The position numbers were made by a program, and so were the translations under genes. From an uncultured Chloroflexia bacterium (lineage in GTDB: Bacteria; Chloroflexota; Limnocylindria; Limnocylindrales; CSP1-4), in the NCBI GenBank assembly GCA_963712745.1, contig CAVQJC010000017.1:160001-224000 (forward strand): a stretch of 64,000 bases of DNA, given 5' to 3'. The notes under the pieces are model-generated. The model made no database searches and was not told the DNA's origin. It was given only the letters and a program-made list of their open reading frames with translations. Position 1 is the stretch's first letter. Each line of letters starts with the position of its first letter. This document shows, piece by piece, positions 1 to 15,943 of this stretch.

Positions 1-4
1 GCAC

Positions 5-442
5 ATGCGTGAAGAGGTACGAGTGGAGGCACCCGTCGAGCACGTCTGGAAGTTCTACTGCGACACATCGAACTGGCCTGACTTCATGCCACGGGCCAAG
101 TGTTCGGATTTCAGCGGGCCGCTGGACAAGGTCGGGACGACGTACGTCGGGGGCATGCGGCTGATGGGCTACGAGTTCAAGACGACCTACGAGATAGTCG
201 AGGTCGAGCCGCAGCGGCTCATCCACGAACACACCGACGACGGTCCCATGGACAACTACTGGCGGTTCGACTCCGACGGCGATGCGACCAAGGTCGTCAT
301 CGAGTCCGACTACGAGATGCCGGGCAAGGTGCCGGGCTTCATCAAGGACCTCATGAGCAAAGCCTGGATCGAGCGGAACATGCGCCAGTCGCTGGCCGAC
401 TTCAAGGCCCTCGCCGAGGCGAAGGTCCCGGCGCACGCCTAG
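5..442 (+). CDS. SRPBCC (polyketide cyclase/START-like) family protein
   Basis: 145 aa. Begins EEVRVEAPVEHVW..W and ends in helix SLADFKALAE, both typical of SRPBCC. Confidence 0.8.
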   Translation: MREEVRVEAPVEHVWKFYCDTSNWPDFMPRAKCSDFSGPLDKVGTTYVGGMRLMGYEFKTTYEIVEVEPQRLIHEHTDDGPMDNYWRFDSDGDATKVVIESDYEMPGKVPGFIKDLMSKAWIERNMRQSLADFKALAEAKVPAHA

Positions 443-556
443 CCTAGCCGCGGCTGCATGAGGCCCATCCATGAGGATGGGCCTCCCCTCGCACATGGGG
501 GCGCGCGAGCGCCCCCGCCGGGCTCAGTCTTCGAGGCCGGAGGCTCAGCGGCGATG

Positions 557-601
557 CCATGGCTGCGACGACCAGACATCGCCCTCAATGCGTGGCGGTT
601 C
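557..601 (+). repeat. Degenerate copy of cassette-boundary site R
   Basis: ccatggctgcgacgaccagacatcgccctcaatgcgtggcggttc aligns without gaps to the R consensus ccatggcggcgacgaccagacataacccgctattcatggcgattc. Confidence 0.7.
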
Positions 602-603
602 GG

Positions 604-765
604 CTACTCCTCCTCGAACAGGAACACGATCGTCTCGGCGATGGTCAGCCAGTCATCGGCGGGCGGGCCGCCTGTCGTGCTGCACCAGAGCCACGTCGAT
701 GACAGCACAGACGAAGTCGCCGTCGTACAGGTAGATCAGGGCGTCCGAAGTCGGCCCGCAGAGGG
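604..765 (-). pseudogene. 3' remnant of a family-A (PsbP-like) cassette gene
   Basis: Minus strand reads ..WLWCSTTGGPPADDWLTIAETIVFLFEEE*, matching the family C-terminus C..P.DDWLSIAETFEFLPAE. No start codon or N-terminus. Confidence 0.65.
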
Positions 766-770
766 TCTGG

Positions 771-1763
771 TCACTCGATCGGGATCGAGAGGGGGGCGCC
801 TTCCGCGTACAGCGTCGCCGCGAGGATCACCACCTCATCGTCGGTCGTGTTCGCCCCGAAGTGCTGAAGGTCTGGGTTCTCGACGATGCTGTCGCCGGTC
901 TTGAGCGTGTACGTGGCCGGGCCGACGGGTTCGCTGGAGCCATCTGCGTGGATGATCGTGCCCTCACCCGAGATGATCGTGTACTCGAGCGCTCCGCGGA
1001 CGATGCGTGCGATCTGCCAGCCGGCATGCGTGTGCGGGGCCAGCTCCGCGCCGGCAGGGATGCGGTACTGCCACAGCCCCAGCTCCTCACCCGGGGCCGA
1101 GCTCGGTCGTGCGAGTCCCAGATCGGTGCGGGTGATACCGACCTCCTCGATGGCGGGTCCACCGGTCTCCACGACGGCCACGCCGGGTTCCGCATCGGAT
1201 CTCTTGCTGCTCTTGTCCTTCGTGTCCTTCTTGTCGAGCTTGATCTTCTTGCCATCAGAGAAGTAGAGCGCGTGCACCCAACTGTCGTCTGCGAGGTGCT
1301 CTGTCACAGCCGAGCCCGTGGCGCCGTAGAACTTGCCCGATCCGCCCAGGATCGGCCGAGTCGTGACGTTGCCGGTGGCGATGGTGGGGCCCTGGGCCGG
1401 GTAGAGGGCGCTGCCACCGACCACGACCTGATCCACGTCGCCATCGCCGAACGAGAAGACGAGGGTGCTGATGCGGATCTCGTCGCCTTGCGCCGGCACA
1501 TCCACCGCGGTCGTCGTCAGTGTCGCGTCGAGGCGGCCGATCACCTGGCCGTCCTCAGCGGTCGTCTCGGTCGAGGTGACCCGGAGGTCCCCCAACTGGT
1601 GACCATCAGACGCGGCATTCGTGAGCGTGACGACGACCGCGTCGTGGTAGACAGAGAGCGATTCCTTCTCACGTGCCGCGCTCACCGGGGCGGCCAGGAC
1701 GACGAGCAGCAGTAGGCTGGTCAGGAGCGCGGTGAAGTACAGAGGCTGGAAACGGCTGTGCAC
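771..1763 (-). CDS. Secreted protein with dirigent/allene-oxide-cyclase-like beta-barrel and C-terminal cupin domain
   Basis: GTG start with GGAG upstream, signal peptide ending APVSA, RPILGGSGKFYGATG motif, cupin motifs PHTHAGWQ..G and ENPDLQHFGAN. Confidence 0.7.
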   Translation of the reverse strand: MHSRFQPLYFTALLTSLLLLVVLAAPVSAAREKESLSVYHDAVVVTLTNAASDGHQLGDLRVTSTETTAEDGQVIGRLDATLTTTAVDVPAQGDEIRISTLVFSFGDGDVDQVVVGGSALYPAQGPTIATGNVTTRPILGGSGKFYGATGSAVTEHLADDSWVHALYFSDGKKIKLDKKDTKDKSSKRSDAEPGVAVVETGGPAIEEVGITRTDLGLARPSSAPGEELGLWQYRIPAGAELAPHTHAGWQIARIVRGALEYTIISGEGTIIHADGSSEPVGPATYTLKTGDSIVENPDLQHFGANTTDDEVVILAATLYAEGAPLSIPIE

Positions 1764-1937
1764 TGGCTGATCTCCGAAGTCGGTTGGATGACGGAGTGGC
1801 AATCATCGGGCAGCGACGGCCAGCGGGCAAGTCGCCGGGATAGGCTCGGAGTCCCCCGACCCGATGCCTCCTCGGTCTTCACCCTCCTCTCACGACCCAG
1901 CGGGTCGAGTGCCCCGCACATCGCCGGGACCCGCCCC

Positions 1938-3617
1938 CTACGCCCTGGCCAGCTTCTTGTAGCGGATGCGGTGCGGCTGGTCGGCCGCTGTCCCCAACTC
2001 CTTGCGCCGGAAGGCCTCGTAGTCGCTCACGTTCCCCTCGAAGAAGCGCACTTGGGAATCGCCCTCGAAGGCGAGGATGTGGGTCGCGATCCGGTCGAGG
2101 AACCAGCGGTCGTGGGAGATGACCACGACGCAGCCCGGGAACGACTCCAGGCCGGCCTCGAGCGCTCGCAGCGTGTCCACGTCGAGGTCGTTGGTCGGTT
2201 CGTCGAGCAGCAGCACGTTGCCACCCGTCTGCAGCAGCTTGGCGAGGTGCACCCGGTTCCGCTCGCCACCCGACAGTTGGCCGACGAGCTTCTGCTGGTC
2301 GGTGCCACGGAAGTTGAACGATGAGACATAGGCGCGGGCCGGGACCTCGCGTGCCCCGGTCTTGATGAACTCGGCACCCTGGGTGATCTCCCCGAATACC
2401 GTCTTGTCGGCGGCCAGGTCGTCGCGCTCCTGGTCGACATAGCTCAGCGCGACGGTGTCACCGATCGCGATCGACCCGGCGTCGGGTGCCTCCTGCCCGA
2501 CGAGCATCCGGAACAGCGTCGTCTTGCCGGCGCCGTTGGGTCCGATGATCCCGACGATGCCGGCCCGCGGCAGCGAGAACGTCAGGTCCTCGATGAGCAG
2601 CTTCTCGCGGTAGCCCTTGCGCAGGCCGGCGACATCGATGACCTTGTCACCGAGCCGCGGCCCCGGGGGGATGGCGATCTCGAGCTCGCGGGCGCTGGCC
2701 TTGTCGTCGTTCGCCTCGGCCAGGAGTCGCTCGTAGGCTGACAGTCGAGCCTTGCCCTTGGCCTGACGCGCCTTCGCACCCATGCGCACCCATTCGAGCT
2801 CGCGCGCGAGCGTCCGCTGCCGGGCATCGACCTGCTTCTGCTCGGTCGCCAGCCGCGCGAGCTTCTGCTCGAGCCAGCTCGAGTAGTTGCCACTGAACGG
2901 GATGCCGCGGCCCCGGTCGAGCTCAAGGATCCACTTGGCCACGTTGTCGAGGAAGTATCGATCATGGGTGATGGCGACGACGGTACCGGCGTATTCGGAC
3001 AGGAAGCGCTCCAGCCATTCGACCGACTCGGCATCGAGGTGGTTCGTCGGTTCGTCGAGCAGCAGCAGGTCCGGGTGGCGCATGAGCAGTCGTGCGAGCG
3101 CCACGCGGCGCTTCTCGCCGCCGGAGAGCGTCCTGACGTCGGCGTCGTCGGGCGGGCAACGGAGCGCGTCCATCGCGATGTCGACGTTGCGCTCGAGGTT
3201 CCACGCGTCCGCGGCTTCGATGCGGTCCTCGAGGACCGCCTGCTCGGCGCCGATCGCGTCGTAGTCGGCGTCGGGATCGGACCAGCGGGCCATGACCGCG
3301 TTGTACTGGTCGATGAGCGACTGGACCTCGCGGACGCCGTCGAGCACGTTGCCCTTGACGTCCTTCGCGGAGTCGAGCCCGGGCTCCTGCTCGAGGTATC
3401 CGACGGTGAAGCCCGGGGTCAGCCGAGCCTCGCCGTTGTAGCCGTCGTCGAGCCCGGCCATGATCTTGAGCAGGCTCGACTTGCCGGCGCCGTTGGGCCC
3501 GATGACCCCGATCTTGGCGCCGGGATAGAAGGACAGCGAGATGTCCTCCAGCACGGTCCGGTCGGGCGGATAGTGCCGGGCGAGCTTGTACGCGGTGTAG
3601 ATGAATTCGGCTGGCAT
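1938..3617 (-). CDS. ettA: Energy-dependent translational throttle ABC-F protein
   Basis: 559 aa with two ABC domains. N-terminus DISLSFYPGAKIGVIG and C-terminus QPHRIRYKKL are characteristic. Confidence 0.95.
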   Translation of the reverse strand: MPAEFIYTAYKLARHYPPDRTVLEDISLSFYPGAKIGVIGPNGAGKSSLLKIMAGLDDGYNGEARLTPGFTVGYLEQEPGLDSAKDVKGNVLDGVREVQSLIDQYNAVMARWSDPDADYDAIGAEQAVLEDRIEAADAWNLERNVDIAMDALRCPPDDADVRTLSGGEKRRVALARLLMRHPDLLLLDEPTNHLDAESVEWLERFLSEYAGTVVAITHDRYFLDNVAKWILELDRGRGIPFSGNYSSWLEQKLARLATEQKQVDARQRTLARELEWVRMGAKARQAKGKARLSAYERLLAEANDDKASARELEIAIPPGPRLGDKVIDVAGLRKGYREKLLIEDLTFSLPRAGIVGIIGPNGAGKTTLFRMLVGQEAPDAGSIAIGDTVALSYVDQERDDLAADKTVFGEITQGAEFIKTGAREVPARAYVSSFNFRGTDQQKLVGQLSGGERNRVHLAKLLQTGGNVLLLDEPTNDLDVDTLRALEAGLESFPGCVVVISHDRWFLDRIATHILAFEGDSQVRFFEGNVSDYEAFRRKELGTAADQPHRIRYKKLARA

Positions 3618-3699
3618 GAGGCTAGGGTAGCGACCCTCCGCGGGGCAGCGCCTCGGGCTCGGTCGACACGGACCGTGCGCGTCCTCAGCCCGCCTGGCT

Positions 3700-3801
3700 C
3701 ATCCTCCGCGCCCCGGCCATCGGGTCAAGCGCCGGACGGACCTGGGTCCCGCCTGGCCATGGCGGCGACGACCAGACCAAACCCGCTATTCATTATGTTT
3801 G
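3700..3801 (+). repeat. L + R repeat (R right arm divergent: tcattatgttt)
   Basis: catcctccgcgccccggccatcgggtcaagcgccggacgg ... ccatggcggcgacgaccagaccaaacccgctattcat. Confidence 0.9.
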
Positions 3802-3840
3802 CTGAAGCCAGCCGACCCCTGTGCTAGTCCTCGCTCGCGC

Positions 3841-4500
3841 CTACCCCTCGACGGGCAGGAACTCGAAGGTCTCGGCGATGGAGAGCCAGTCGGGGTTGGG
3901 AGCCTCCTCGCCACCACACGTGATGCCGTAGATCGTCGAGTCGTCCTGCAGCAGGAACTGCGTGCCCGCGAACGGTGTGGGTCAGTCTGGATCGACGAAG
4001 GTGTGATCGATGCGAACCGCCTCGCCCGCTGGAAGCGTCACGACGGTAACCGTCGCGCCGCCAGGGTATCGATCGTCGGCCTGGAGGCGGGCGACGTGCT
4101 CTGCCACCAGTGAGTCGAGTGGGACGATCGCAGCCATGACCTCGACCCCGCAGTAGCCTGGGACTTCCTGGGGGCCCACGTACGGCATCGCCAGGACGGG
4201 TGACTCCTCGCTGACGGCCTCGTAGAGCCAGCTGAGATCAGCGGCATAGGTCGAGTCGGTCACGTTGCTGAGCATCTCGCCTAGCGAGCCGGCATCGAGC
4301 CCAGACCGGCGGACCCAAGCCCAATCATCGGGAAACGCCAGCGCGAAGCCAGCACCGGGCACCTCCACTCGACCACCCAGGCCAACCGGTCCGGGCGACG
4401 GTTCCCGTGCCACCACCCCAGTCCCTAGTACTAGGACCAGCAGCCCTGCCAGCAGTCCGACTCGCTTGCCCACCACGTCCCCCATCCTGCTTGTCGTCAC
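3841..4500 (-). pseudogene. Family-A secreted PsbP-like protein interrupted by an in-frame TGA at 3982-3984
   Basis: Frame continues past the TGA as PTPFAGTQFLLQDDSTIYGITCGGEEAPNPDWLSIAETFEFLPVEG*. Signal peptide and GFALAFPDDW motif present. Confidence 0.8.
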
Positions 4501-4548
4501 ATCCTCTGCACCCCGCTCAGCGGGTCAAGGGCCGGACGGCCCGGCGGC
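4500..4548 (+). repeat. L repeat only (minus-strand promoter)
   Basis: catcctctgcaccccgctcagcgggtcaagggccggacggcccggcggc. Confidence 0.9.
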
Positions 4549-4568
4549 GTGACGGAGCTGGAGCGCGA

Positions 4569-4866
4569 TCAGTCCGGATCGAACGAAGCGGCGAGCGTCT
4601 GGAGCGCGGTTACCGCATCAGGGGCGTTGGAGGCCCGCCGATCACCGGACGGCCCCGAGGCCACGGCCTGCCACTCGCCGGATGGACGATCTCCCGAGCC
4701 ATCGGACGAGACGTAGTGCACGCCGGAACAGCACCCACCCATCAGGCAGCCGGTCCTCTGTTGCCAGCCAGGCGCTCGTCAGCCGATCGGGAACGGTCCC
4801 GTCTCGTCGGACCGTGGTCTGGCCGAACGCCGTCGCGACCGTCGCCAACTTCGCCCATACCATCAC
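4569..4866 (-). pseudogene. Small hypothetical cassette gene with a 1-nt frameshift near 4726
   Basis: MVWAKLATV..AWLATEDRLPDGWVL joins in another frame to SGVHYVSSDG..GEWQAVASGPSG..ALQTLAASFDPD*. Lies downstream of an L promoter. Confidence 0.5.
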
Positions 4867-4908
4867 GTCACCCCTGCCCGAGCGACCGGCACTCCCGGTC
4901 AGTACTCC

Positions 4909-5010
4909 CATAGTCCGCGCCTCGGTCAGCGGGTCAAGGGCCGGACGGCCCGGCGGCATGCGTGGCCATGGCGGCGACGACGAGACCAAACCCGCTATAC
5001 ATGGCGATTC
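4909..5010 (+). repeat. L + R repeat
   Basis: ..tcagcgggtcaagggccggacggcccggcggc..ccatggcggcgacgacgagaccaaacccgctatacatggcgattc. Confidence 0.92.
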
Positions 5011-5058
5011 CGTGCGGCCCACTGGAGCTTCGTGGACGCCCGCGAGAGAATCGTCGTA

Positions 5059-5131
5059 GCGGGAGGCAATGACGCGCGGCCCCAGCCCTGGCCGCCTGGA
5101 CCGTGCCGAGTCACTGGCGGACCCGACCCGC
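5059..5131 (+). ncRNA. c-di-GMP-II-like riboswitch aptamer (copy 1)
   Basis: GCGGG-AGGCAATGA-CGCGCGG..TGGCCGCCTG-GACCGTGCC-GAG-TCACTGGCGG-ACCCGA-CCCGC follows the class II layout (GGAAACAAUGA..UGGGCACUUG..GAGUUAGUAGUGCAACCGACC). Pairings GCGGG/CCCGC, CCGCC/GGCGG and GCGCGG/CCGTGC. Lies just 5' of the GAGGGGG RBS. Confidence 0.72.
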
Positions 5132-5149
5132 GCTTGTGAGGGGGATGTC

Positions 5150-6031
5150 ATGCGTACGTTGCGGCTGTCCCTGGTCGGGACGGTCATCGTGATGCTGCTC
5201 GGCGGGCTGGGCAGCACGGTGCTCGCGCACGATGAGATGCCTGGCGTCGGCGTCGAGGTCTTGGGCGACCTCGGCGCCATCCCAGGCGAGGCCATCCCCG
5301 AGGACGCCGTCCGTGTCGCGTTCGCTCGGACTAGCATCGAGCCGGGCGTGACCGGCGAGGTCGGCTCGGCCCAGCCCCATGAATGGGCCAGCCTGGAATG
5401 CGTCCAGCACGGTTCGCTCACGTTCACGGACAGCGACCGGACAGTGATCTGGCGGGTGGGCGAAACGACCGAGGACCTCCCCGCTGGGACGACCGCCAGC
5501 GTGAACACCGGGGATCTCGTGCTCTTCTATGACGGCGGGGCCGGGAGGAGTTTCGCGAACGCGGGGCCCGAGACGTACGTGACGTACTCCGTGGCGGTCG
5601 GCGACAGTGATGACCCGGCGGAGCCACCGGTCCTGCCCCCCGGCGTCTCCTGGCGGCTCCTCGTCTTCGACGTGCTGGCACCCGAGACCGTGGATCTCTG
5701 GTTCACGACACCGGTCGCGGTGGCGTTCGAGCGACTCGCGTTCTACCCCGGCGGCCAGCTCGTGCTTGGGTCTGACGAGGCCGGGTTGCTGCGCCTCCTG
5801 GCGCTCGAAGAAGGTCGCCTGGAGAGCGGCTTCGCGGCCCCATCCGAGGTCGCCGGGGCGCTGACCGACTCGGTCAGGTTCATCGCGCCCGACGCCGACA
5901 TTCTCACGTCGGGATCATTCGCGGACGACACGGTCTACGTGATCCGAAACGAGTCGGACGAGCCTGCGATTGTCCTGAGCGCCACGCTGACGCATGTTGA
6001 TGGGACCACGGAGGCCAAGCCCGCCGAGTAA
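5150..6031 (+). CDS. Secreted tandem cupin-like protein (cassette)
   Basis: ATG after GAGGGGG, signal peptide MRTLRLSLVGTVIVMLLGGL, two degenerate cupin repeats (V.HGSLT..GD..FAN.G and LEEGRLE..IRNESDEPA). Ends in PAE*. Confidence 0.7.
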   Translation: MRTLRLSLVGTVIVMLLGGLGSTVLAHDEMPGVGVEVLGDLGAIPGEAIPEDAVRVAFARTSIEPGVTGEVGSAQPHEWASLECVQHGSLTFTDSDRTVIWRVGETTEDLPAGTTASVNTGDLVLFYDGGAGRSFANAGPETYVTYSVAVGDSDDPAEPPVLPPGVSWRLLVFDVLAPETVDLWFTTPVAVAFERLAFYPGGQLVLGSDEAGLLRLLALEEGRLESGFAAPSEVAGALTDSVRFIAPDADILTSGSFADDTVYVIRNESDEPAIVLSATLTHVDGTTEAKPAE

Positions 6032-6034
6032 CCC

Positions 6035-6106
6035 CATCGCGCCGCCTCGGCTGCCTGCCGCCCTGCCCCATCCTCCGCGCCCCGCTCAGCCGGTCAAGGG
6101 CCGGAC
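6035..6106 (+). repeat. L' tail followed directly by an orphan L repeat
   Basis: catcgcgccgcctcggctgcctgc (6035-6058), then catcctccgcgccccgctcagccggtcaagggccggac (6069-6106). Confidence 0.85.
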
Positions 6107-6201
6107 TGACTGGTGGCATGGGTGGCGGCAGGCTACCCGGCATCACGTGGTCCCTTCGGCACTGTCGGTCCGAGTGGACACCTCGGTATCGTCGAGCCGC
6201 C

Positions 6202-6516
6202 ATGGCGGACCCGCTGGAGCCTGACACGCGGCCGGACGAGCCGCACATCACAAACCCATCGATGCGCGAGGCGGAAGAGCCGGACCTAGCGCGCGTGGCC
6301 GAGGAGTGGAGGCGAGAGACACGCCAAGCGAAGGACCAGCGGAACGCCGAAACCGAGGAGTGGCTGAAGGCGTTCGAGGCCAAGCATGAGAACCCGAGGG
6401 ACACCTTCCTCGGGCTGCTACTGCATGGTTGCTGTTGGTGGTCCCTCATGAGAATGGCGTGCGCCACCCTGCTGGTCGTGTTCGTCGCAGCTTGGGCCCG
6501 GCGTGCGAGGGGGTAG
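6202..6516 (+). CDS. Hypothetical protein with C-terminal membrane anchor (cassette)
   Basis: ATG 9 nt after TATCGT. Acidic helical N-terminus and hydrophobic C-terminus, followed by L'+R. Confidence 0.55.
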   Translation: MADPLEPDTRPDEPHITNPSMREAEEPDLARVAEEWRRETRQAKDQRNAETEEWLKAFEAKHENPRDTFLGLLLHGCCWWSLMRMACATLLVVFVAAWARRARG

Positions 6517-6521
6517 CACCT

Positions 6522-6591
6522 CATCGCGCCGCCTCGGCTACCTGCGCCATGGCGGCGATGACCAGACATAACCCGCTATTCATGGCGATTC
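6522..6591 (+). repeat. L' + R repeat
   Basis: catcgcgccgcctcggctacctgcg-ccatggcggcgatgaccagacataacccgctattcatggcgattc. Confidence 0.92.
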
Positions 6592-6609
6592 TGGAGTAGT
6601 GGTCAGTGG

Positions 6610-7791
6610 CTAGCCCGCCTCGGCGGGCAGGAACTCGAACGAGTCGGCGATGGAGAGCCAGCGGTCGTCGAAGCCGTGGTAGCCAAAGCAGCCAATCAGA
6701 GCTTCGGGGCCGTCGGTAGCGAGAGCGGTCTCGAAATCGATCAAGAACGTCGAGTTGTACGTCGCCCTGCCGGTGTCCGCTCGGGTGACGTAGTCGATGC
6801 GGTGAGACGGGCCGGCCGGCAGCATCAGCTCCGACACGGTCGGCCCCTCGGCCAGCCCAGGGTCGCCTCTCGCGTGATCGAGTGCGCCGGCGAGGACGTC
6901 ATCGAGCGAGCTGCCGACGGGCAGATCCGTGGATTGGACCAGGCACGTCGTGGCCGGCCACCCATCGGGCTCGACCGGTCCGAACACCAGGGCGTGGAAC
7001 GCGTACCCCTGGTCCGACAGCGCGCTCAGTTGCTCCAGCATCGTCGCGGTCGTATCGACCCAGCGCGGATGTGTCTGACGGACGAGGTCAAGGTTCTCCT
7101 CCGCGCTTGCCTCGTTCGGGTCAAGGATGACCCAGTCGTCCGGAAAGGTCAGTGCAAATCCTGGAGCGATAGCCTCCAGGCGACCGCCCATGCCGGCCGT
7201 GTCGCGGGGGCGGAGCCACTCGAGTGACTCGGCGATAGCGCGCCACCTATCCGGGGTCGGATGCGGACCTTCACACGTGAGGATGACGCTCCAGGCATCA
7301 CCGCCGATCATGAAGCCCTCGCGGTAGAGCGCCACCTCGTCCGTGTCTGGCGGCACGACCTGCCATCGATAAGTGACGGCGGGGCCGGCCGGGAGCTCGG
7401 TCTGCGAAATGCCCTCGTACGCATGGACACTGGGCTCTGCCCTGATGGCCGCATCCAGCCCTCCGTAGAACCCCGGGTCGAGGACCTCTTCTCCGTCCCA
7501 CGGGACCACGTCCAGATCGCAAGCGTCGCCCGATGGCGACATCAGGAAGAGTTCTGACTCAGTCTCCTCATCGAGCAGGCCGACCTGCGCGCCGGCGGCC
7601 TGCAACTGGGCGTCGAGTTCCACGGTGAGGTCGAAGGCGATCCAATCGGTCGGGATCGATACGGCGATGCCGTGCCTGGGCATCTCCACGCGCCCACCGA
7701 ACCACGGTGGAGGCTGCGACTCTGACGCCACCACCCCAGACCCCAACGACAGAACCATCAGTAGCGCCAGCAACCCGACTCGCCTGCCCAT
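6610..7791 (-). CDS. Family-A secreted protein with two PsbP-like domains (cassette)
   Basis: Signal peptide, then twice GGR(V/L)E..G(I/F)A..P.DW..C..LPAGP..C..DRW.(A/S)IA.S.E.L. Confidence 0.8.
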   Translation of the reverse strand: MGRRVGLLALLMVLSLGSGVVASESQPPPWFGGRVEMPRHGIAVSIPTDWIAFDLTVELDAQLQAAGAQVGLLDEETESELFLMSPSGDACDLDVVPWDGEEVLDPGFYGGLDAAIRAEPSVHAYEGISQTELPAGPAVTYRWQVVPPDTDEVALYREGFMIGGDAWSVILTCEGPHPTPDRWRAIAESLEWLRPRDTAGMGGRLEAIAPGFALTFPDDWVILDPNEASAEENLDLVRQTHPRWVDTTATMLEQLSALSDQGYAFHALVFGPVEPDGWPATTCLVQSTDLPVGSSLDDVLAGALDHARGDPGLAEGPTVSELMLPAGPSHRIDYVTRADTGRATYNSTFLIDFETALATDGPEALIGCFGYHGFDDRWLSIADSFEFLPAEAG

Positions 7792-7799
7792 AACGTCTC

Positions 7800-7892
7800 C
7801 ATCCTCCGCGCCCCGCGCCGCGGGTCAAGGGCCGGACGGCCCGACGGCCATGGCGGCGACGACCAGACCAAACCCGCTATTCATGGCGATTT
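7800..7892 (+). repeat. L + R repeat
   Basis: catcctccgcgccccgcgccgcgggtcaagggccggacggcccgacgg-ccatggcggcgacgaccagaccaaacccgctattcatggcgattt. Confidence 0.92.
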
Positions 7893-7960
7893 CGGAGTCG
7901 CGTTCGCGCCAGCGTGCTGACTGCGTTGGTGACCCCTCACGCTTGGCCTGATGCCCGCGC

Positions 7961-8350
7961 TCAGCGGTAGCCGAGGACGAGCGTTAAGAACAACAACAGG
8001 ATGACGAAGAAGCTCACGGCGGCGAGGACGAAGCTCACGAGACCGACGATCAACCACGCCCCGAGGCCATGGAGCCCCATTCGACGACCGGTCCCGAGGA
8101 TCACCAGCGGGACCAGGATCAGCCCAAGTAGCCCCAACCCGAGCCCGAGGTCGATACCTGCCGCTGAGTCCACCACGGCACCGACTCCGGAGAGCAGGAA
8201 CCAGGCGCCGATGAGCGTAGCCGTGGCCAGGACAGTGGTCGCCGATGCTGCCTTGGAGCGGTCCCGGAGCGCGTTGTACAGCCCCTCGCCCACCCAGCCG
8301 TACAGCCTCAAGTCATCACTCACGGCACCGCTCCCCGCGATGGTCTGCAT
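7961..8350 (-). CDS. Small multi-pass membrane protein (cassette)
   Basis: Three hydrophobic segments, downstream of an L promoter. Start may be 8350 or 8323. Confidence 0.6.
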   Translation of the reverse strand: MQTIAGSGAVSDDLRLYGWVGEGLYNALRDRSKAASATTVLATATLIGAWFLLSGVGAVVDSAAGIDLGLGLGLLGLILVPLVILGTGRRMGLHGLGAWLIVGLVSFVLAAVSFFVILLLFLTLVLGYR

Positions 8351-8380
8351 CGCGATCAGGTTTGTGCCCGACCATCCGCC

Positions 8381-8474
8381 CATCCTCCGCGCACCGGCCA
8401 GTGGGTCAAGGGCCGGACGGCATGCATCGCCATGGCGGCGACGATCAGACATAATCAGCTGTACATGGCGATTC
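8381..8474 (+). repeat. L + R repeat (spacer variant tcagctgt)
   Basis: catcctccgcgcaccggccagtgggtcaagggccggacgg..ccatggcggcgacgatcagacataatcagctgtacatggcgattc. Confidence 0.9.
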
Positions 8475-8523
8475 TCGATTGGCGCTCGAGAGCCGATGGA
8501 CGCCCGCGAGAGAATCGCAGGTA

Positions 8524-8593
8524 GCGGGAGGCGATGAGACGCGGCCGAGCAATGTCCGCCTGGACCGCCCGAGCCACTGGCCAACCCGGCCCG
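8524..8593 (+). ncRNA. c-di-GMP-II-like riboswitch aptamer (copy 2, diverged)
   Basis: gcgggaggcgatgagacgcggcc..tgtccgcctggaccgcccgagccactggccaacccggcccg, homologous to 5059-5131. Confidence 0.6.
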
Positions 8594-8613
8594 AGGATGA
8601 GAGGGGGGACTTC

Positions 8614-9150
8614 ATGCGCACGTTGCGGCCGTCACTGGCGGCGATCATCATCTTGGTGCTGGCCATGACATCGGGCAGCGCGGTCTTGGCCCAGTCGGAC
8701 GACGCGCCTGCCGCCTGGGTCGAAGCGACGAGCATCGCGCATCCCTGCGTCGGACTCGGGGAACCCGAGGAGTACATCGAGGAGACGCACGTGACCCGTC
8801 TCCGAGGCTCGGCTCTCGACTGCAGCATGGACCTTGGCGACGCCCGCCTGAAGGGCACTGCGGATATGAGCTGGAACTACGACTGCTACGACGCGGTCGG
8901 GGCCGGCTGCGTGCGTTGGGGCTCCGTGGTGCTGACTGGGCCCGATGGCACATGGGAGGGTACGTTCAGCGGCGTAGAGAGCCCCGCAGGGTCCGGTGCT
9001 TCCTTCTCTGCTGAGTACATCGAGCTCGCGGGCAGGGGTGCCTACGATGGGCTTGCGTACGTGGGTCAGGCAGCCAACCAGTTCAGCACTTCTGGACGGT
9101 GGTTCGGCATCGTGTACGAAGGCGAGTTGCCGTCTCCGTCCGCCGAGTAG
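8614..9150 (+). CDS. Family-B secreted beta-rich protein (cassette)
   Basis: Signal peptide MRTLRPSL.. and motif C..DARLKG..N.DC..C..WG..GPDGTWEG..L.G.GAYDGL. Ends in SAE*. Confidence 0.75.
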   Translation: MRTLRPSLAAIIILVLAMTSGSAVLAQSDDAPAAWVEATSIAHPCVGLGEPEEYIEETHVTRLRGSALDCSMDLGDARLKGTADMSWNYDCYDAVGAGCVRWGSVVLTGPDGTWEGTFSGVESPAGSGASFSAEYIELAGRGAYDGLAYVGQAANQFSTSGRWFGIVYEGELPSPSAE

Positions 9151-9153
9151 TCG

Positions 9154-9244
9154 CATCGCGTCGCCTCGGCTGCTTGCGGCTCAGGATCGGCGTGCATAGC
9201 CACGGCGGCGACGACCAGACCAAACCCGCTATACATGGCGATTC
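9154..9244 (+). repeat. L' + R repeat
   Basis: catcgcgtcgcctcggctgcttgcg..ccacggcggcgacgaccagaccaaacccgctatacatggcgattc. Confidence 0.9.
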
Positions 9245-9260
9245 CTGTTAGCGAGTCGGG

Positions 9261-10394
9261 TCAGGTCGGCAGTTCGGCCAGCACGTCCTCGATGGCCATC
9301 CCACCGCTGCCACTGACGATGAACAGGACACCGCGAACGGTATACATGAACGACCACGTCGAACCGTCATCCGCCTCCTCCGCGTCATCCGTCCAGACGG
9401 TACGTTCACCGTAGGTCCGAGTCGGCCACTCCGAGAGCGGCGGGGTCACAGAGGTGCCCATCTCGCTGCGCATGATCTGTACCAGTTGCTCCATCACGAC
9501 TACGGGCGGGACTCCAGCAACTCGGATGGCCTCAACGACGTACTGCTCCGGCACCGACCGGTCAGCCGTACGCGCATGTGCCACCTGCAGGTCCCTGAAC
9601 TCCTGTCCGAGGTCGGAGATCAAGCGTCGGAACAACCGGCGAGCGTCTTCCTCGGTCAGCACCAGAGACGAGCTGCTCTCGACGGACAGCGGAGTATCGC
9701 CGATCACGTGCGGCAGCAGGGAGATCACCTGGTCGGACGGGAGCGGCAGGGTCTCGACGGTCTCGGCGATGGAGAGCCAGTCGTCGTCGGGGCGTTGGAA
9801 AGCTGAGCACGTCATCGTCAAGATGTCGCCGCCGACGTCGATCAGATACATCGTGACGGGGCCCCAGACGTCACGGTCGTAGGCATTCTGGGCGGTCGCT
9901 CGAAGTACCAGACCGGGACCGGTCGGCACGTCCACCGGCATCGGCGGGTCGGCATCCACCATCGACTCCGCGTCCACCATCGTCTGGTACAGACCTTCGG
10001 CGAAGGCATCGAGCCGCCAGCCTTCCCCGAGCCTTGGATAGAACAAGCAGCTCTCCGTCTCCGCGAGGGAGCACACTGAGGACGAGAGGTCCATACCCAA
10101 TAGCGGGAAGGATCCCTCAGCGGCCAAGAGCGAGAGGTTCATGTGCAGGCACGAGAGCCCAGCTGCAGTCAGTCCACCATCAGGCGAGTCCATGGCGCGG
10201 ACCTGTGAGTCGATGTCGGCGCCAGGGTCGAACGCCACCCAGCCCTCGGGGAGGGTGACCGCGAAGCCGTACTCAGCGATCTCCACGCGCCCGCCCATCC
10301 ACGGCGGAGGCGAGGCATCCTCCGCCCGCGCGGACCCGAATACAGTCGCCAGCAGACTGACCACAAGCAGCGCCACGCTCGCCAGCTGTCGCAT
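9261..10394 (-). CDS. Secreted fusion of a family-A PsbP-like domain and a family-C domain (cassette)
   Basis: GGRVEI..GFAVTLPEGW..DDDWLSIAETVE, then a domain ending IEDVLAELPT that resembles 11958-12557. Confidence 0.8.
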   Translation of the reverse strand: MRQLASVALLVVSLLATVFGSARAEDASPPPWMGGRVEIAEYGFAVTLPEGWVAFDPGADIDSQVRAMDSPDGGLTAAGLSCLHMNLSLLAAEGSFPLLGMDLSSSVCSLAETESCLFYPRLGEGWRLDAFAEGLYQTMVDAESMVDADPPMPVDVPTGPGLVLRATAQNAYDRDVWGPVTMYLIDVGGDILTMTCSAFQRPDDDWLSIAETVETLPLPSDQVISLLPHVIGDTPLSVESSSSLVLTEEDARRLFRRLISDLGQEFRDLQVAHARTADRSVPEQYVVEAIRVAGVPPVVVMEQLVQIMRSEMGTSVTPPLSEWPTRTYGERTVWTDDAEEADDGSTWSFMYTVRGVLFIVSGSGGMAIEDVLAELPT

Positions 10395-10417
10395 TCTCGT
10401 ACCTGTGCGGATGCCCT

Positions 10418-10510
10418 CATCCTCCGCGCCCCGCTCAGCGGGTCAAGGGCCGGACGGCCCGGCGTCCATGGCGGCGACGACCAGACATAACCCGCTATAC
10501 ATGGCGATTC
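10418..10510 (+). repeat. L + R repeat
   Basis: catcctccgcgccccgctcagcgggtcaagggccggacggcccggcgt-ccatggcggcgacgaccagacataacccgctatacatggcgattc. Confidence 0.93.
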
Positions 10511-10530
10511 GTACCGTCCGCTCGGCCGAG

Positions 10531-11136
10531 CTACGCTCCGGCGGGCAGGAACTCGAAGGTCGCGGCGATGGACAGCCAGTCATCCTCGGGTGCTCCTCGC
10601 GAACAGCCGAGGAAGTACCACCGGTGTCCATCACCGAAGAGGTACATAGCGTATCGGTCAGCGGTCTCCAGCGACGCCCAGTCGGGGTACCCGCCGGGCT
10701 CGCCCCAGAAGTTCGCGTCTGAGGGCACCAGGTCCATGGTGACCCGTCCGACGCGTCCAGCCGGCAGGTCGATGACCGCGCCGGTGACGTTCCTGGCGGC
10801 GAGACTGTCGTCCCATCGCGAGACCAACGCATCGAGCCAGTCGTCAATCGACTCGACCGGCAGGACCGGCTCAACGACGGACGAGTCAAAGACCTCACAG
10901 TAGCCACCCGGCCCCGAGGAGGTCAGGCCCGGCAAGTACGGGGGGTGATCCAGCATCCCAATGACCTCCCACCCGTCGGGGAAGGCGATGGCGATTCCCA
11001 GATCCGGGAAGGTCCGGATGGTGGCGGCAGGCTGCCCCGTCACCTCCGGGCTCGCCGACGGTGACTGCGCCGTGATGGCGCTCGACGTCGTGGCTAGGAG
11101 ACACGCCACCGCAACCGAGATGATGAGCCGTCGCAT
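10531..11136 (-). CDS. Family-A secreted single PsbP-like domain protein (cassette)
   Basis: Signal peptide and GIAIAFPDGW..C..LPAGR..C..EDDWLSIAATFEFLPAGA*. Confidence 0.8.
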   Translation of the reverse strand: MRRLIISVAVACLLATTSSAITAQSPSASPEVTGQPAATIRTFPDLGIAIAFPDGWEVIGMLDHPPYLPGLTSSGPGGYCEVFDSSVVEPVLPVESIDDWLDALVSRWDDSLAARNVTGAVIDLPAGRVGRVTMDLVPSDANFWGEPGGYPDWASLETADRYAMYLFGDGHRWYFLGCSRGAPEDDWLSIAATFEFLPAGA

Positions 11137-11161
11137 GATCGACTCCCGTGCGCGATGCCCC

Positions 11162-11266
11162 CATCCTCTCCGCCCCGCTCAGTGGGTCAAGGGCCGGACG
11201 GCCCGGCGGCGTGCCATCGCCATGTACGGGCGATGACCAGACCAAACCCGCTATTCATGGCGATTC
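11162..11266 (+). repeat. L + R repeat
   Basis: catcctctccgccccgctcagtgggtcaagggccggacggcccggcggc..gaccagaccaaacccgctattcatggcgattc. Confidence 0.92.
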
Positions 11267-11377
11267 TCGCTTGGGGCGGAGTTCGCAGCAACGGCTCGTG
11301 GGACGCCTGCGCCTCGAGAATCGTCTACCTGGTACAGGCGGGATCGACTCGTCAGCGTGAGAATCGAGGGAGAGACC

Positions 11378-11899
11378 ATGGGAACGATCAGGATCGGCAT
11401 CATCACGCTCCTCACCATCGGCCAGCTGGCGGGCTCAGCGGTCAGTGTCGCAGCGCAGGACGATGAAGCCGTCGTCGTGAGCGGGGGCATGAGTCCGATT
11501 GGCGGCGCGAGCGTGCCGTGCGAGCTGGAGGAGGATTTCACCGAACTCGACGACGGCACGGCCAGCTGGACCTGGTGCTTCGGTCTCGTGATGGACGATC
11601 CACGGCTCACCGGCGACGGCTCCGTCGTCATGGCTGAGCGGGCGTACGACGGCTTCGGCCTGATCTCCTCGAGGGTGGAGATAGCCAACGAAGGAGGGTC
11701 GTGGTCGGGCAACGGCACCAGGGTCTTCATCGACGGAGATCCGGGGATCGATATCGAGCAACTCGTACTCACCGGGGCCGGTGGATATGGCGGCCTGACG
11801 GCCATCCTCTATGCCGATCCGGAGTTCGGCTTCCGCGGATTGGACTCGTGGAACGGCGTCATCATCTCGGGCGAGATGCCAGGACTACCTGCCGAGTAG
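11378..11899 (+). CDS. Family-B secreted beta-rich protein (cassette)
   Basis: ATG after GAGGGAG, signal peptide, DDPRLTG..GGSWSG..VLTGAGGYGGLTAI. Ends in LPAE*. Confidence 0.75.
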   Translation: MGTIRIGIITLLTIGQLAGSAVSVAAQDDEAVVVSGGMSPIGGASVPCELEEDFTELDDGTASWTWCFGLVMDDPRLTGDGSVVMAERAYDGFGLISSRVEIANEGGSWSGNGTRVFIDGDPGIDIEQLVLTGAGGYGGLTAILYADPEFGFRGLDSWNGVIISGEMPGLPAE

Positions 11900-11957
11900 A
11901 CCCCTCGCGCCACCTCCGCCTCGGCGGGCAGGAACTCGAAGGTCTCGGCGATGGAGG

Positions 11958-12557
11958 CTATGGCAGTTCGGCCAGCACGTCCTCGATGGTCGGTTCGGTC
12001 GGTGCGTCGGGGTCAGAGCCAACGCGACCAAGCCGCACTCTGAACAGGACCTCGCCCTTCGGGTAGAGGTACTCGATGAAGCGGTCGTCGGCGCCATCGA
12101 AGGTAACGACCACGACGCGGCGGTCACCGATGTCCTGCCAGTCCATAGCGGCCACTGGCAGTTGGTCGGCGACAGCTTGGGACTCGCGTCGCAACCCCTC
12201 GAACACGCCTGCCCAGAAGTCTGCCGCCTGAGCACCCACGATGCGTGTCGCCTCGATACTCAGGAACCGGTCTCCTTCCGGGTGAACTCCATAGCCGCCT
12301 GCGGCTCTGACATCCTCCGGCTCCAGTCCGAGTGGCACCAAGACATCACGCCAGCCTGCGGTCCACTCCGCATCGGCGGAAGAGACAGCCGAGAAGTCCA
12401 GGATGGACAGGTCGATGTCCCCGACCTGTGACGGGATGATGGACGCCAAGTCATCGGGTGCGAACGGCGGCGTGGCCTCCGCTGACGGCGACTGAGCCAA
12501 CGCCCCAGACCCCAGCGACAGAACCATCAGCCCTGCCAATAGCCCGGCTCGCTTCAC
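11958..12557 (-). CDS. Family-C secreted protein (cassette)
   Basis: GTG after AGGAGG. Signal peptide KRAGLLAGLMVLSLGSGALA resembles that of 7791. Ends in IEDVLAELP*. Confidence 0.75.
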   Translation of the reverse strand: MKRAGLLAGLMVLSLGSGALAQSPSAEATPPFAPDDLASIIPSQVGDIDLSILDFSAVSSADAEWTAGWRDVLVPLGLEPEDVRAAGGYGVHPEGDRFLSIEATRIVGAQAADFWAGVFEGLRRESQAVADQLPVAAMDWQDIGDRRVVVVTFDGADDRFIEYLYPKGEVLFRVRLGRVGSDPDAPTEPTIEDVLAELP

Positions 12558-12584
12558 GGCTCCACCCCTCCTGCGGATGCCGCT

Positions 12585-12686
12585 CATCCTCCGCGCCCCG
12601 AGCCCCGGGTCAAGGGCCGGACGGCCCGGCGGCACGCTCAGCCCTGGCGGCGACGACCAGACATAACCCGGTATTCATGGCGATTC
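12585..12686 (+). repeat. L + R repeat
   Basis: catcctccgcgccccgagccccgggtcaagggccggacggcccggcggc..ccctggcggcgacgaccagacataacccggtattcatggcgattc. Confidence 0.92.
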
Positions 12687-12734
12687 CGTGCGGCCCACTG
12701 GAGCCTCGTGGACGCCCGCGAGAGAATCGTCGTA

Positions 12735-12807
12735 GCGGGAGGCAAAGACGCGCGGCCCCAGCCCTGGCCGCCTGGACCGTGCCGAGTCACTGGCGGACCC
12801 GACCCGC
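12735..12807 (+). ncRNA. c-di-GMP-II-like riboswitch aptamer (copy 3)
   Basis: Identical to 5059-5131 except caaTga becomes caaAga. Confidence 0.68.
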
Positions 12808-12825
12808 GCTTGTGAGGGGGATGTC

Positions 12826-13359
12826 ATGCGTACGTTGCGGCTGTCCCTGGTCGGGACGGTCATCGTGATGCTGCTCGGCGGGCTGGCTGGAGCGGTGCTT
12901 GGCGCAGGACGAGGAGGAAGCGCCCGTATGGGTGACCCTCCTCGCGCAGGAGAACTGCCGGATGGAGGCGGACCCCGGCACCTACGAGCCAGGCGCAGGA
13001 CGCGCCAAGAAGATCCGCGACCTGCCCCTCGCTTGCGACCTCACCTACAGCGATGCCCGCCTTAGCGGGCCGAGCCACATGCTCTACAACGAGGACTGCT
13101 TCGAGTCGGGCATCTGCGTCGGGTGGGGGACCATCGGATCGACGGCTCCGACGGATCGTGGACCGGGTGGTGGCACGAGATCGACGACGAGGACGACGAT
13201 ACGAGCTTCCACATCGTGCTGACCGGCGACGGCGGTTACGAGGGACTCACCGCCATCATCTACTCACTCGGGGTCTGGGAAACGTTCCCCGACGAGTACG
13301 GTGTCATCTACCGGGGCGATCCGCCGCCAGGTCCCGAGGTGCTGTTGACTGCTGAGTAG
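12826..13359 (+). pseudogene. Family-B secreted protein with two compensating frameshifts (about 12899 and 13134)
   Basis: Three ORF pieces join as MRTLRLSL..AVL / AQDEEEAPVW..DARLSG..NEDC..CVGWGT / RIDGSDGSWTG..LTGDGGYEGLTA..LTAE*. Confidence 0.75.
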
Positions 13360-13587
13360 CAGATCACCAGGCGACCGCGCCACGCTCACCGCCGCGAGCG
13401 AGATCCATACAGGGATAGACACCGATACGACGGTCATCTACCCCTGCTCGAGCTGAGCCGCACCGACATCGACCCCACGGCGCCCTGAGAACAGCACCGC
13501 CACCCTGGAGCAGCACTTCCCGCTGCCGCGTTCATGACCTCCGCCTCTTGAACCGAGCGGTACTGCTGTGGCCTCATACCCATCTGA

Positions 13588-13661
13588 GCGGGAGGCGATG
13601 AGGCACGGCCCACACCCTGGCCGCTGGGACCGCGTCCGAGCCACTGGCGAAACCGGCCCGC
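13588..13661 (+). ncRNA. c-di-GMP-II-like riboswitch aptamer (copy 4)
   Basis: gcgggaggcgatgaggcacggcc..tggccgctgggaccgcgtccgagccactggcgaaaccggcccgc retains the canonical AACCG junction. Confidence 0.68.
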
Positions 13662-13679
13662 GCAGCAAAGGGGGATGTC

Positions 13680-14579
13680 ATGCGGACGTTGCGACTGTCC
13701 CTGTCGGTGACGGTCATCTTGGCACTGCTGAGCGGACTGGGCAGTGCGGTCGTGGCTCAGTCGGAGGAGCCGAACCAACAGAGCGCGTGGCCGAGCCTCA
13801 CGACGTCCCTCGAGTACGGCGAAGACCCAAAGCAGGTTATCCATGCCTACGAGCCAGAGCCTCGGACCGCGCCACGGCCCGCCGTCGTCTTCTTCTCCGG
13901 CGGCGGATACGACATCGGGGATCCGCTGTGGGTCCTCGACTCTGCACGCCAGATGGCCGAGGCTGGCTACGTGGCCTTTGCGGCGGGCTACCGCCTCCAC
14001 GATCCGTCGACGGGCACGAACCCATGGCCGGCACAACTCGAGGATGCCCAGGCAGCGGTCCGCTGGATCCGCGCTCACGCGGCGGACTACGGCGTCGACC
14101 CCGACCGGATCTGCGCCCTCGGCCATTCCTCCGGTGGCCACCTCGCGTCGCTGGTCGGCATGACCGATGCCCGCGACACGAGTGACCCTGACATGGCGGG
14201 CATCTCGAGCCGCGTCACCTGCGTCGTCAGCGTCTCGGGCGACGTCGACCTCACGATCGGCAACCCGTACCCGGAGCAGACGGCGGTCTACGAGAGCCTG
14301 CTGGGCGCCAGCTACGAGGATGACCCCGCCGCGTGGCGTGCGGTCTCGCCCGCCTACCTCGTCGATGCGGAGACCGTGCCCATCCTCATCATCCACGGCA
14401 CCCGCGACACCAACGTCGACGTTCAGGCGTCCCGGAACCTGGCGGCAGCCCTCGCCGAGGTCGACCGGGAGTTCGTCTACGCCGAGATAGACGCCGACCA
14501 CTTCGACATCTTCGAGCAGCCCCCGACCCTGCCGCTCACCGAGACGTTCCTCGTCTACCAACTCCATCCAGAGGAGTGA
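13680..14579 (+). CDS. Secreted alpha/beta hydrolase (HSL/BD-FAE-like esterase) (cassette)
   Basis: Oxyanion motif FSGGG, nucleophile elbow GHSSGG, IHGTRD and ADH. Carries the shared MRTLRLSL signal peptide. Confidence 0.88.
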   Translation: MRTLRLSLSVTVILALLSGLGSAVVAQSEEPNQQSAWPSLTTSLEYGEDPKQVIHAYEPEPRTAPRPAVVFFSGGGYDIGDPLWVLDSARQMAEAGYVAFAAGYRLHDPSTGTNPWPAQLEDAQAAVRWIRAHAADYGVDPDRICALGHSSGGHLASLVGMTDARDTSDPDMAGISSRVTCVVSVSGDVDLTIGNPYPEQTAVYESLLGASYEDDPAAWRAVSPAYLVDAETVPILIIHGTRDTNVDVQASRNLAAALAEVDREFVYAEIDADHFDIFEQPPTLPLTETFLVYQLHPEE

Positions 14580-14739: not shown

Positions 14740-14830
14740 CTCGCGCCGCCTCGGCTGCCTGCGCCATGGCGACGACGACCAGACGTCGTACGCGTGGCGA
14801 CCAGACCAAGCCCGCTATACATGGCGATAC
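14740..14830 (+). repeat. L' + composite R (short variant followed by full core)
   Basis: tcgcgccgcctcggctgcctgcg-ccatggcgacgacgaccagac-gtcgtacgcgtggcg-accagaccaagcccgctatacatggcgatac. Confidence 0.88.
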
Positions 14831-14865
14831 GCCGGGTCGGCAGGTCAAGCGCGATACGGCCGCGC

Positions 14866-15840: not shown

Positions 15841-15849
15841 CACTTGCCC

Positions 15850-15943
15850 CATCCTCGCCTGCCGGCTCAGTCGGTCAAGGGCCGGACAGCCCGGCGGCAT
15901 GCATCGCCATGGTGCCGACGACCAGACGGCGTACGCCTGGCGA
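15850..15943 (+). repeat. L + terminal short-variant R (right end of array)
   Basis: catcctcgcctgccggctcagtcggtcaagggccggacagcccggcggc..ccatggtgccgacgaccagac-ggcgtacgcc-tggcga. Confidence 0.85.

Follow-up and report, generated by a model that had tools for sequence, protein, structure and literature searches.

The 30-bp motif ACCAGACATAACCCGCTATTCATGGCGATT at positions 6561–6590 on the plus strand is the core of a repeat, hereafter R, that punctuates arrays of small gene cassettes, and we see about an even chance that R is the attachment (junction) site between neighboring cassettes of a polar array. The window, i.e., the whole stretch of 64,000 nucleotides analyzed here, corresponds to G000:C17:160001–224000 in an assembly of 4.2 Mb (20 contigs, 84.5% complete, 68% G+C). 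Arrays of this type share a common anatomy, run in a single direction, and differ between species with breakpoints at their sites; beyond these observations, we infer site-specific strand exchange, circular intermediates, and an enzyme that catalyzes the reaction.

Each R is a hybrid, its left half (GCCATGGCGGCGACG plus ACCAGAC) belonging to the left-hand cassette and its right half (NNN-ACCCGCTAT-N-CATGGCGATTC) to the right-hand one. An array is a series of the form (R-cassette)n, closed by a related terminal site, T, that abuts conserved chromosome. In the mechanism that we propose, cassettes would enter, leave, and be swapped through recombination, with strands exchanged within the invariant ACCAGAC (7 bp) or directly beside it and the recombinase acting in trans, and successive insertions would leave T at the far end.

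Anatomy of the repeat and its sites

At ≤3 mismatches, six copies of the R core were detected in the window and none in 100 shuffles. At ≤8 substitutions the number of copies rises to 11, all of them on the plus strand between 571 and 14829 (core starts at 571, 3771, 4980, 6561, 7862, 8444, 9214, 10480, 11236, 12656, and 14800), where none are expected by chance, so that the 30-bp motif singled out in the initial annotation is real. The conserved unit is larger than first described: across 83 copies from nine arrays it measures ~46 nt, extending from 15 nt left of the core through 1 nt to its right, with the consensus GCCATGGCGGCGACG-ACCAGAC-NNN-ACCCGCTAT-N-CATGGCGATTC. Since copies were retrieved via core positions 1–30, the left arm alone provides an unbiased measure of conservation.

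Two parts of this block are variable. The triplet at core positions 8–10 is hypervariable (CAA in 38 of the 83 copies, ATA in 14, ATC in 10, ATG in 9, ACC in 4, and 8 singletons), and core position 20 takes all four bases (T 50, A 14, C 11, G 8). The two arm states noted at the outset, ACATAA/ACCAAA and TCATGG/ACATGG, do alternate within the window, but give way to multiple states once the 83 copies are pooled. Variant "spacers" had been reported as well, and these were confirmed as TCAGCTGT in the copy starting at 8444 and CCCGGTAT in the copy at 12656, the coordinates 8430 and 12642 originally attached to them marking the start of the 15-nt left arm in these two copies. R also contains two CATGGCG direct repeats 33 nt apart, i.e., about three helical turns. 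The 11-8-11 dyad fared less well: the given copy does match at 6/11 positions, but this is not clearly above chance, as ≥6/11 is reached by 6.3% of random 30-mers from the window, and among the 83 copies the number of matches varies between 1 and 8, most often being 4. No inverted copy of the left arm is present in the right half of R, and the only dyad-like member of the family is T, which we count against the cassette-site reading.

The sequences around R fall into a small number of types. To the left of the core, a type I flank of ~60 nt includes GGGTCAAGGGCCGGACGG, a Shine-Dalgarno sequence, and the start of a minus-strand gene, while a type II flank of ~25 nt (CATCGCGCCGCCTCGGCTGCCTGC) follows the stop of a plus-strand gene. 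On the right, the core is followed by one of two arrangements: a minus-strand gene whose stop lies ~20 nt away, or a promoter-like stretch with a variant c-di-GMP-II riboswitch and a plus-strand gene behind it. All combinations of left and right flanks were seen, and in the window R occupies every type of gene junction (divergent at 4980, 8444, and 12656; convergent at 6561, 9214, and 14800; tandem at 7862, 10480, and 11236). Among 91 R sites, 44 carry a type I leader, 30 have a riboswitch on the right, and 18 lie after the end of a plus-strand gene. R is conserved regardless of this context, with a mean of 4.2 mismatches for type I (n = 44) and 3.6 for type II (n = 18), and of 3.9 with a riboswitch on the right (n = 30) vs 4.9 without (n = 61).

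R sites between 571 and 15943, all on the plus strand, divide about eleven units in the window. The leftmost two are eroded: the site at 556..601 is degenerate, with 7 core substitutions, and the one at 3756..3801 has a decayed right end (..CATTATGTTT), its type I flank (3698–3755) leading to an ABC-F gene on the minus strand (1938–3617). The site at 4965..5010 is a divergent junction with a type I leader on the left and a riboswitch-led plus-strand gene on the right; the riboswitch, a c-di-GMP-II-GCG variant on the plus strand (5053..5137) ahead of a secreted-protein gene, is a signal of the cassette cargo that lies outside R. Next, between convergent gene ends, comes the site from which the motif was first described (6546..6591), composed of the left arm GCCATGGCGGCGATG (6546–6560), ACCAGAC (6561–6567), the triplet ATA, and the right half ACCCGCTATTCATGGCGATTC. 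It is followed by the sites at 7847..7892, where a type I leader (7798–7846) stands ahead of the minus-strand secreted-protein gene 6610–7791; at 8429..8474, with the variant "spacer" ATAATCAGCTGT; at 9199..9244, a convergent junction where a type II flank follows the plus-strand gene 8614–9150 and a minus-strand gene stops at 9261; and at 10465..10510, between tandem minus-strand genes. The site at 11221..11266 has an atypical outer left arm; this site and its right-hand cassette recur in the array on contig C7 with 98.4% identity across 691 bp. The site at 12641..12686, with the variant CCCGGTAT, is again a divergent junction. On the right side of the array, an internal T site at 14763..14799 (left arm, ACCAGAC, and GTC-GTACGCGTGGCG) is directly followed by an R core fused onto it without a left arm of its own (ACCAGACCAAGCCCGCTATACATGGCGATA, 14800..14830). 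A terminal T site (GCCATGGTGCCGACG-ACCAGAC-GGC-GTACGCCTGGCGA) then occupies 15906..15943, and just downstream of it lie the terminator hairpin of an OTCase gene and the gene itself (16021–16998, minus strand).

The riboswitches in the cassettes stand ahead of plus-strand genes for secreted proteins and belong to the Rfam families RF03170 ("GCG") and RF03169 ("GAG"), with those at 5053–5137, 12729–12813, and 13582–13667 scoring above the gathering score and one at 8518–8600 below it. No Rfam family matches R itself, the only matches being these neighboring riboswitches, and a literature search on the names of the riboswitch variants returned nothing related. Cargo across arrays includes esterase, Kelch, SRPBCC, ECF sigma, GNAT, VanZ/RDD, META, GYD, and glycosyltransferase genes, along with many secreted proteins that have no Pfam match. 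In the window, it consists mostly of signal-peptide proteins with no Pfam match, plus one BD-FAE esterase. One family of the former kind, encoded on the minus strand at 6610–7791, 9261–10394, 10531–11136, and 14866–15975, contains one or two copies of the module GGRVE..P..GFA...DRWLSIAETFEFLP and represents the commonest minus-strand cargo across all arrays.

Some cassettes contain debris. Frameshifted or truncated copies of two secreted-protein families were observed at 3841–4500, 12826–13355, 11914–11977, and 604–700, and isolated remnants of type I flanks inside cassettes at 4498–4577 and 6067–6146, which suggests that old cassettes decayed and fused. Separately, some arrays contain IS21-type (istA/istB) and rve-type DDE transposase genes or have them at their 5′ edge (L006:5705–7698 in G014; L007:3546–5953 and L007:16207–18494 in G022; L075:7358–8437; L056:75–1154), the rve calls coming from Pfam and the IS21 label from inspection of the translations by eye. 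IS110-family elements, also assigned by eye from their translations, interrupt the R core at one and the same point, between ACCCGCT and ATTCATGG, in two species (L007:19251 with L008:704 in G022, and L009:15030 in G013), indicating that R is a specific target for that element. IS1111-type elements of the IS110 family target the attC sites of integrons in a similar way.

Polarity, terminal site, and turnover of the arrays

We next consider the arrays as wholes. G000 contains three main arrays (C17:158.7–175.9 kb; C7:68.3–77.0 kb, which reaches the contig end; and C10:39.5–50.9 kb) and a fourth, small array on C1. Among 49 genomes of the genus, R was found at ≤3 mismatches in 17 and T outside the helicase gene described below in 16, the two occurring together in 14. 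R was also found on 29 metagenome contigs, and in 0 of 16 searched genomes, all small, of one sister family (f2). The arrays are strictly polar: in each of nine arrays every site is on one and the same strand (21/21, 9/9, 7/7, 9/9, 5/5, 3/3, 13/13, 8/8, and 8/8). Identical 30-mers recur across species in which the syntenic flanks are 80–90% identical. At a locus between an EF-G-like gene and hisA that is syntenic in four species, the arrays harbor 8 R sites in G000 (on C10), 21 in G021, 9 in G005, and 9 in G022, with wholly different cassettes.

T consists of the R left arm and ACCAGAC followed by [A/G]TC-GTACGC[C/G]TGGCG, which makes it five bases shorter than R on the right, and it forms an imperfect dyad (GGCGACGA-CCAGAC[G/A]-TCGTACGCC). 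Wherever R and T were found together on one contig, T lies 3′ of the last R and on the same strand (22/22 arrays, i.e., four in G000, seventeen in congeners, and one on a metagenome contig), while some other arrays have no T at ≤3 mismatches or extend past the end of the contig. In a hand count, orthologous T sites deviate at ~1.7 of 22 nt from the consensus, about the same as their flanks, and so give no sign of selection on T, a second point that we count against the cassette-site reading. On the small array of G000, at C1:113276–113357, a single left arm is followed by three head-to-tail T units of 22 nt (ACCAGACGTCGTACGCGTGGCG), with a weak R ~220 nt upstream.

The sequence of T has a close counterpart in a housekeeping gene. 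A UvrD-like helicase of 575 aa is encoded beside uvrC (copies from congeners, L017–L022), and T with its left arm (compared at 14763–14799 and 15906–15943 of the window) shows ~94% identity to the coding DNA for motif III (FLVGDDDQTIYAWR) of this protein: in a hand count from the alignment, 33 of 35 positions match, with two compensating 1-nt indels, and the local alignment score of 27 compares with 13.3 ± 2.1 for shuffles. Two T sites, read in frame, translate as HGDDDQTSYAWR. Across the genus, the T pattern was found in 47 of 49 genomes, mostly at the helicase gene and usually once per genome (two in G052), and the arrays lie outside this gene. In G000, the assembly of which is 84.5% complete, a tblastn search found no orthologue of the 575-aa helicase, the best matches being paralogues at 32–44% identity. 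Judged by this resemblance, an ancestral target in the UvrD-like helicase gene may have given rise to T, or may be imitated by it.

Homology between species breaks off near the sites at several kinds of boundaries. On the hisA side of the locus shared by G000 (C10), G021, G005, and G022, it starts 14–20 nt left of ACCAGAC in T. At the OTCase locus, T lies ~12–15 nt from the terminator in seven species and is absent from six others, and in six of the seven T-bearing loci pairwise homology of 87–92% ends 5–24 nt left of ACCAGAC in T, with the exception of G053 (L044), where an insert separates T from the gene and the homologous stretch begins with the stop of OTCase. A single replaced cassette distinguishes G048 from G013: between flanks with identities of 94.7% over 3385 bp and 93.5% over 1113 bp, the unit between the last R and T measures 793 bp in one and 1232 bp in the other. 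A three-gene ECF-sigma cassette is likewise shared at 96.3% identity over 2140 bp by two metagenome contigs with unrelated left neighbors. Its homology begins 15 nt left of ACCAGAC, an odd right-half ending, GGCGACCC, travels along with it, and the far-end site has ATG/A in one contig but CAA/T in the other at the triplet and position 20.

Junctions internal to the arrays were also informative. Homology to R begins abruptly at ACCAGAC at 14800 of the window and at region coordinates 13679 and 15212 of C10, and the same kind of joint links the three tandem T units at C1:113291. Beside hisA on C10, the right half of T stands alone and is followed by an MBL-fold gene, then by the left arm and ACCAGAC with a T-like right half. 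The borders of this gene fall between ...ACCAGAC and AGAGCACGCCTGGCGA on one side and between GGGCGAC and TCGTACGCGTGGCGG, next to hisA, on the other, so that from its sequence the gene appears to have inserted into T immediately behind ACCAGAC.

Overall, 42 of 111 internal ends of homology blocks fell within −30 to +45 of a site, compared to 3.4 ± 1.8 (maximum 8) for random positions, the ends being drawn from 39 inter-array blocks of ≥85% identity and ≥300 bp and being non-independent, as many come from the same flanks. These ends peak at −20 to −1, the outer edge of the generic left arm. Linkage between the triplet and the right-hand cassette has slender support, the triplet being shared in 3/3 recent pairs homologous on the right vs 0/2 homologous on the left, and in 91 of 404 site pairs vs a background of 998 of 4095, a comparison made uninformative by the generic riboswitch paralogy of right flanks. 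No excision or circle junction was found in four public runs searched with window positions 1–17000 at 90% likeness, where contigs are short, which speaks neither for nor against excision; the joints present in these runs connect paralogous riboswitch or ABC regions.

Taken together, polarity, synteny, and breakpoints support in substance the initial proposal that same-orientation sites bound cassettes that are gained, lost, or exchanged, which is the reading with the best support. Breakpoints fall within the site, in the left arm and ACCAGAC rather than in the 8-bp "spacer".

Recombinase search and alternative readings

No recombinase was identified in or beside any examined array in a Pfam search of 21, 122, and 26 ORFs from the window, arrays, and flanks, and no integrase-bearing module was found in the scanned arrays, which contain only IS-type DDE (IS21, rve) and IS110-family genes. 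In G000 (84.5% complete) and five congeners, matches to PF00589 are located far from the arrays and include no integron integrase. Apart from two Xer-like proteins encoded at a distance from the arrays, the genomes checked have no tyrosine recombinase in common, and other, scattered ones are distant too; a phage-type integrase on C12 is found in G000 only among the 49 genomes. Serine recombinases (PF00239, five genomes) are sporadic, and none occurs in G056, which has 14 R sites.

The initial annotation had interpreted R as a Xer/cer-type site and, alternatively, as the left half of an attC, and neither label is supported. A dif candidate, ACTTCCGATAA-TGCAAG-TTATGTAACAT at G000:C10:83909–83936, is unique in the genome and lies where gene orientation converges, at an extreme of the cumulative GC skew; 32 of 49 congeners carry it once, and among them the arms are kept and only the central hexamer varies. 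Its own dyad reaches 6/11 as well. The replication terminus usually coincides with the maximum of the cumulative GC skew. The extreme at the dif candidate is a minimum, of opposite sign to that of a usual terminus, and dnaA is on another contig. Against this chromosomal site, the bottom strand of R matches the arms at 6/11 and 7/11 positions, and at 5/11 in the majority CAA state, and does not resemble it. We consider it very improbable that R is a dif- or cer-like site for the host XerC/XerD. Such a role would fit with XerC/XerD-like genes being the only tyrosine recombinases in common among the genomes checked, with the bottom strand of the ATA state reading TTATGT as in the host dif, and with the hisA-locus arrays lying 26–58 kb from dif in three species (G000, G005, and G021). 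However, TTATGT occurs in only 14 of 83 copies and is composed from the hypervariable triplet, the strong arm conservation that characterizes dif in 32 genomes is absent from both R and T, and T, although the dyad-like member, bears no likeness to dif. The attC alternative relied on ACATAAC, which uses the same triplet, and R displays no fold signal, no covariation, and no associated integron integrase. Folding z-scores of −1.0, −0.24, +0.24, +0.07, and −0.06 were no better than shuffles, and the predicted stem gave 4 compensatory vs 155 broken cells (11 pairs × 83 copies). The core sites of attC are RYYYAAC ... GTTRRRY, and GTTRRRY does not occur in the R consensus. An RNA or single-stranded DNA hairpin found support neither in energy nor in covariation, and where AGCGGGT in the type I flank could pair with ACCCGCT in the core, most changes went uncompensated, compensation being seen once among 42 copies. 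Least credible of all, in our view, is that R encodes a small minus-strand peptide, M-[N/Y]-S-G-[F/L]-[G/C]-L-V-V-A-A-M-A..GPSGP-stop. Its frame is open over 19–22 codons in several type I copies, with length differences in multiples of three; still, the copy at 8444 has an in-frame stop, ATC-triplet copies read M-x-S-G-stop, variation affects codon positions 1 and 2 rather than the wobble position, and the frame is lost in type II copies.

Two further readings deserve more weight. R could be a selfish or neutral dispersed repeat without a dedicated enzyme, shaped by RecA-dependent recombination and gene conversion between R copies of 46–100 nt and kept uniform by concerted evolution and by the transfer of R-flanked DNA among relatives, which we regard as unlikely but well worth considering. 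This would be in line with the failure to find a recombinase and with the uniform orientation, same-orientation repeats being the survivors under homologous recombination, and breakpoints within a conserved repeat fit homologous and site-specific exchange alike. In addition, the 99% and 98% identical blocks shared by the arrays on C17 and C7 are not both bounded by R, and the 99% block starts inside a riboswitch, away from R, which indicates that homologous recombination or gene conversion also shapes the arrays. A dispersed repeat would, however, predict neither a T variant at the 3′ end in 22/22 arrays at several loci, nor R homology that starts abruptly at ACCAGAC without a left arm, nor a hypervariable triplet amid near-invariant flanks, and it sits uneasily with 30-mers that are identical across species while the flanking genes are just 80–90% identical. 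Alternatively, R may be mainly regulatory, i.e., an operator or alternative-sigma promoter of a secreted-protein regulon that drives the type I leader and minus-strand genes. We find this distinctly unlikely, even though the minus strand of R contains TGAAT-N17-CGTC, a putative ECF-like −35/−10 pair, and ECF sigma genes are themselves cassettes. The spacing of features around R would also suit such a function: leader, Shine-Dalgarno sequence, and minus-strand gene are found at a fixed distance from 44 of 91 sites, the promoter region of a riboswitch lies ~45 nt after 30 of 91, and the CATGGCG direct repeats are about three helical turns apart. Yet the putative −35 includes the variable position 20, a scan of R for sigma-70-type promoter and terminator signals gave nothing above shuffles, 18 of the 91 sites come after the end of a plus-strand gene, and the three window copies at convergent gene ends are conserved at least as well as the others. 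Uniform orientation, the terminal T, and breakpoints at cassette borders would all be left unexplained. A regulatory role for R could possibly coexist with one in recombination.

Returning to R as the junction site between cassettes, a more specific proposal can be made, to which we give somewhat less than an even chance. The arrays may represent a new cassette-integration system of soil Limnocylindria-type Chloroflexota, with small, mostly secreted-protein modules, several of them under variant c-di-GMP-II-like riboswitches. Its trans-acting recombinase would be neither IntI nor, judging by the site, Xer, and would use double-stranded att sites with a 7-bp ACCAGAC crossover, building polar arrays against a T that copies or mimics the helicase motif III DNA of a housekeeping UvrD-like gene.

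Relation to known systems

Integrons, defined by IntI and folded attC sites, are the textbook route by which single-gene cassettes are stockpiled and shuffled. A literature search returned no work joining "Limnocylindria" and "integron", and searches combining integron, CALIN, and Chloroflexi gave general integron papers only. R arrays present an integron-like architecture and between-species turnover on an unrelated, unstructured site, in a soil phylum that has received little study. Should a dedicated enzyme exist, the arrays would amount to a new recombination system, and gene flow in soil Chloroflexota would have a new route; if there is none, they show how closely an integron can be imitated by homologous recombination acting on a conserved repeat. 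The close match between T and the helicase gene provides a concrete handle on the origin of the sites.

Integron arrays and CALINs (clusters of attC sites without an integrase; PMC4889954) resemble R arrays in that individual cassettes are delimited by sites of one orientation, every site combines parts of two cassettes, and the cargo is diverse and often of unknown function. They also share fixed chromosomal loci whose content differs between relatives, as well as a distinct terminal site, attI vs attC, comparable to T vs R. Unlike integrons, R arrays have no attC hairpin, covariation, RYYYAAC/GTTRRRY motif, or IntI, their genes are found in either orientation with leaders or riboswitches of their own, and their special terminal site abuts conserved chromosome instead of an integrase gene. 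What R arrays have of a functional cassette array is direct sites at every boundary, variable content, and breakpoints at the sites.

IMEX arrays at dif are islands that result from successive integration at one att site. R arrays share with such islands a distinct, complete target-type site at one array end (T, 22/22). The Prochlorococcus tycheposons (10.1101/2020.12.28.424599) are similar in that elements are flanked by copies of an attachment motif, newcomers push older elements along while the complete target remains at one end, and many modules lack an integrase of their own. In contrast to tycheposons and IMEX, the att copy of R arrays is neither a tRNA fragment nor dif, no integrase-bearing module was found, modules mostly comprise one to three genes, and T resembles part of a helicase gene while the arrays are located elsewhere. 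Xer sites such as dif, plasmid cer, and the pdif sites of Acinetobacter are, like R, short and asymmetric, and flank modules with no dedicated recombinase gene nearby. The pdif sites of Acinetobacter alternate in orientation, whereas R sites are all direct, and neither R nor T resembles the host dif. The closest analogues of R arrays are integron and CALIN arrays on the one hand and islands of serial integration at a single att site on the other, with R itself belonging to neither family.
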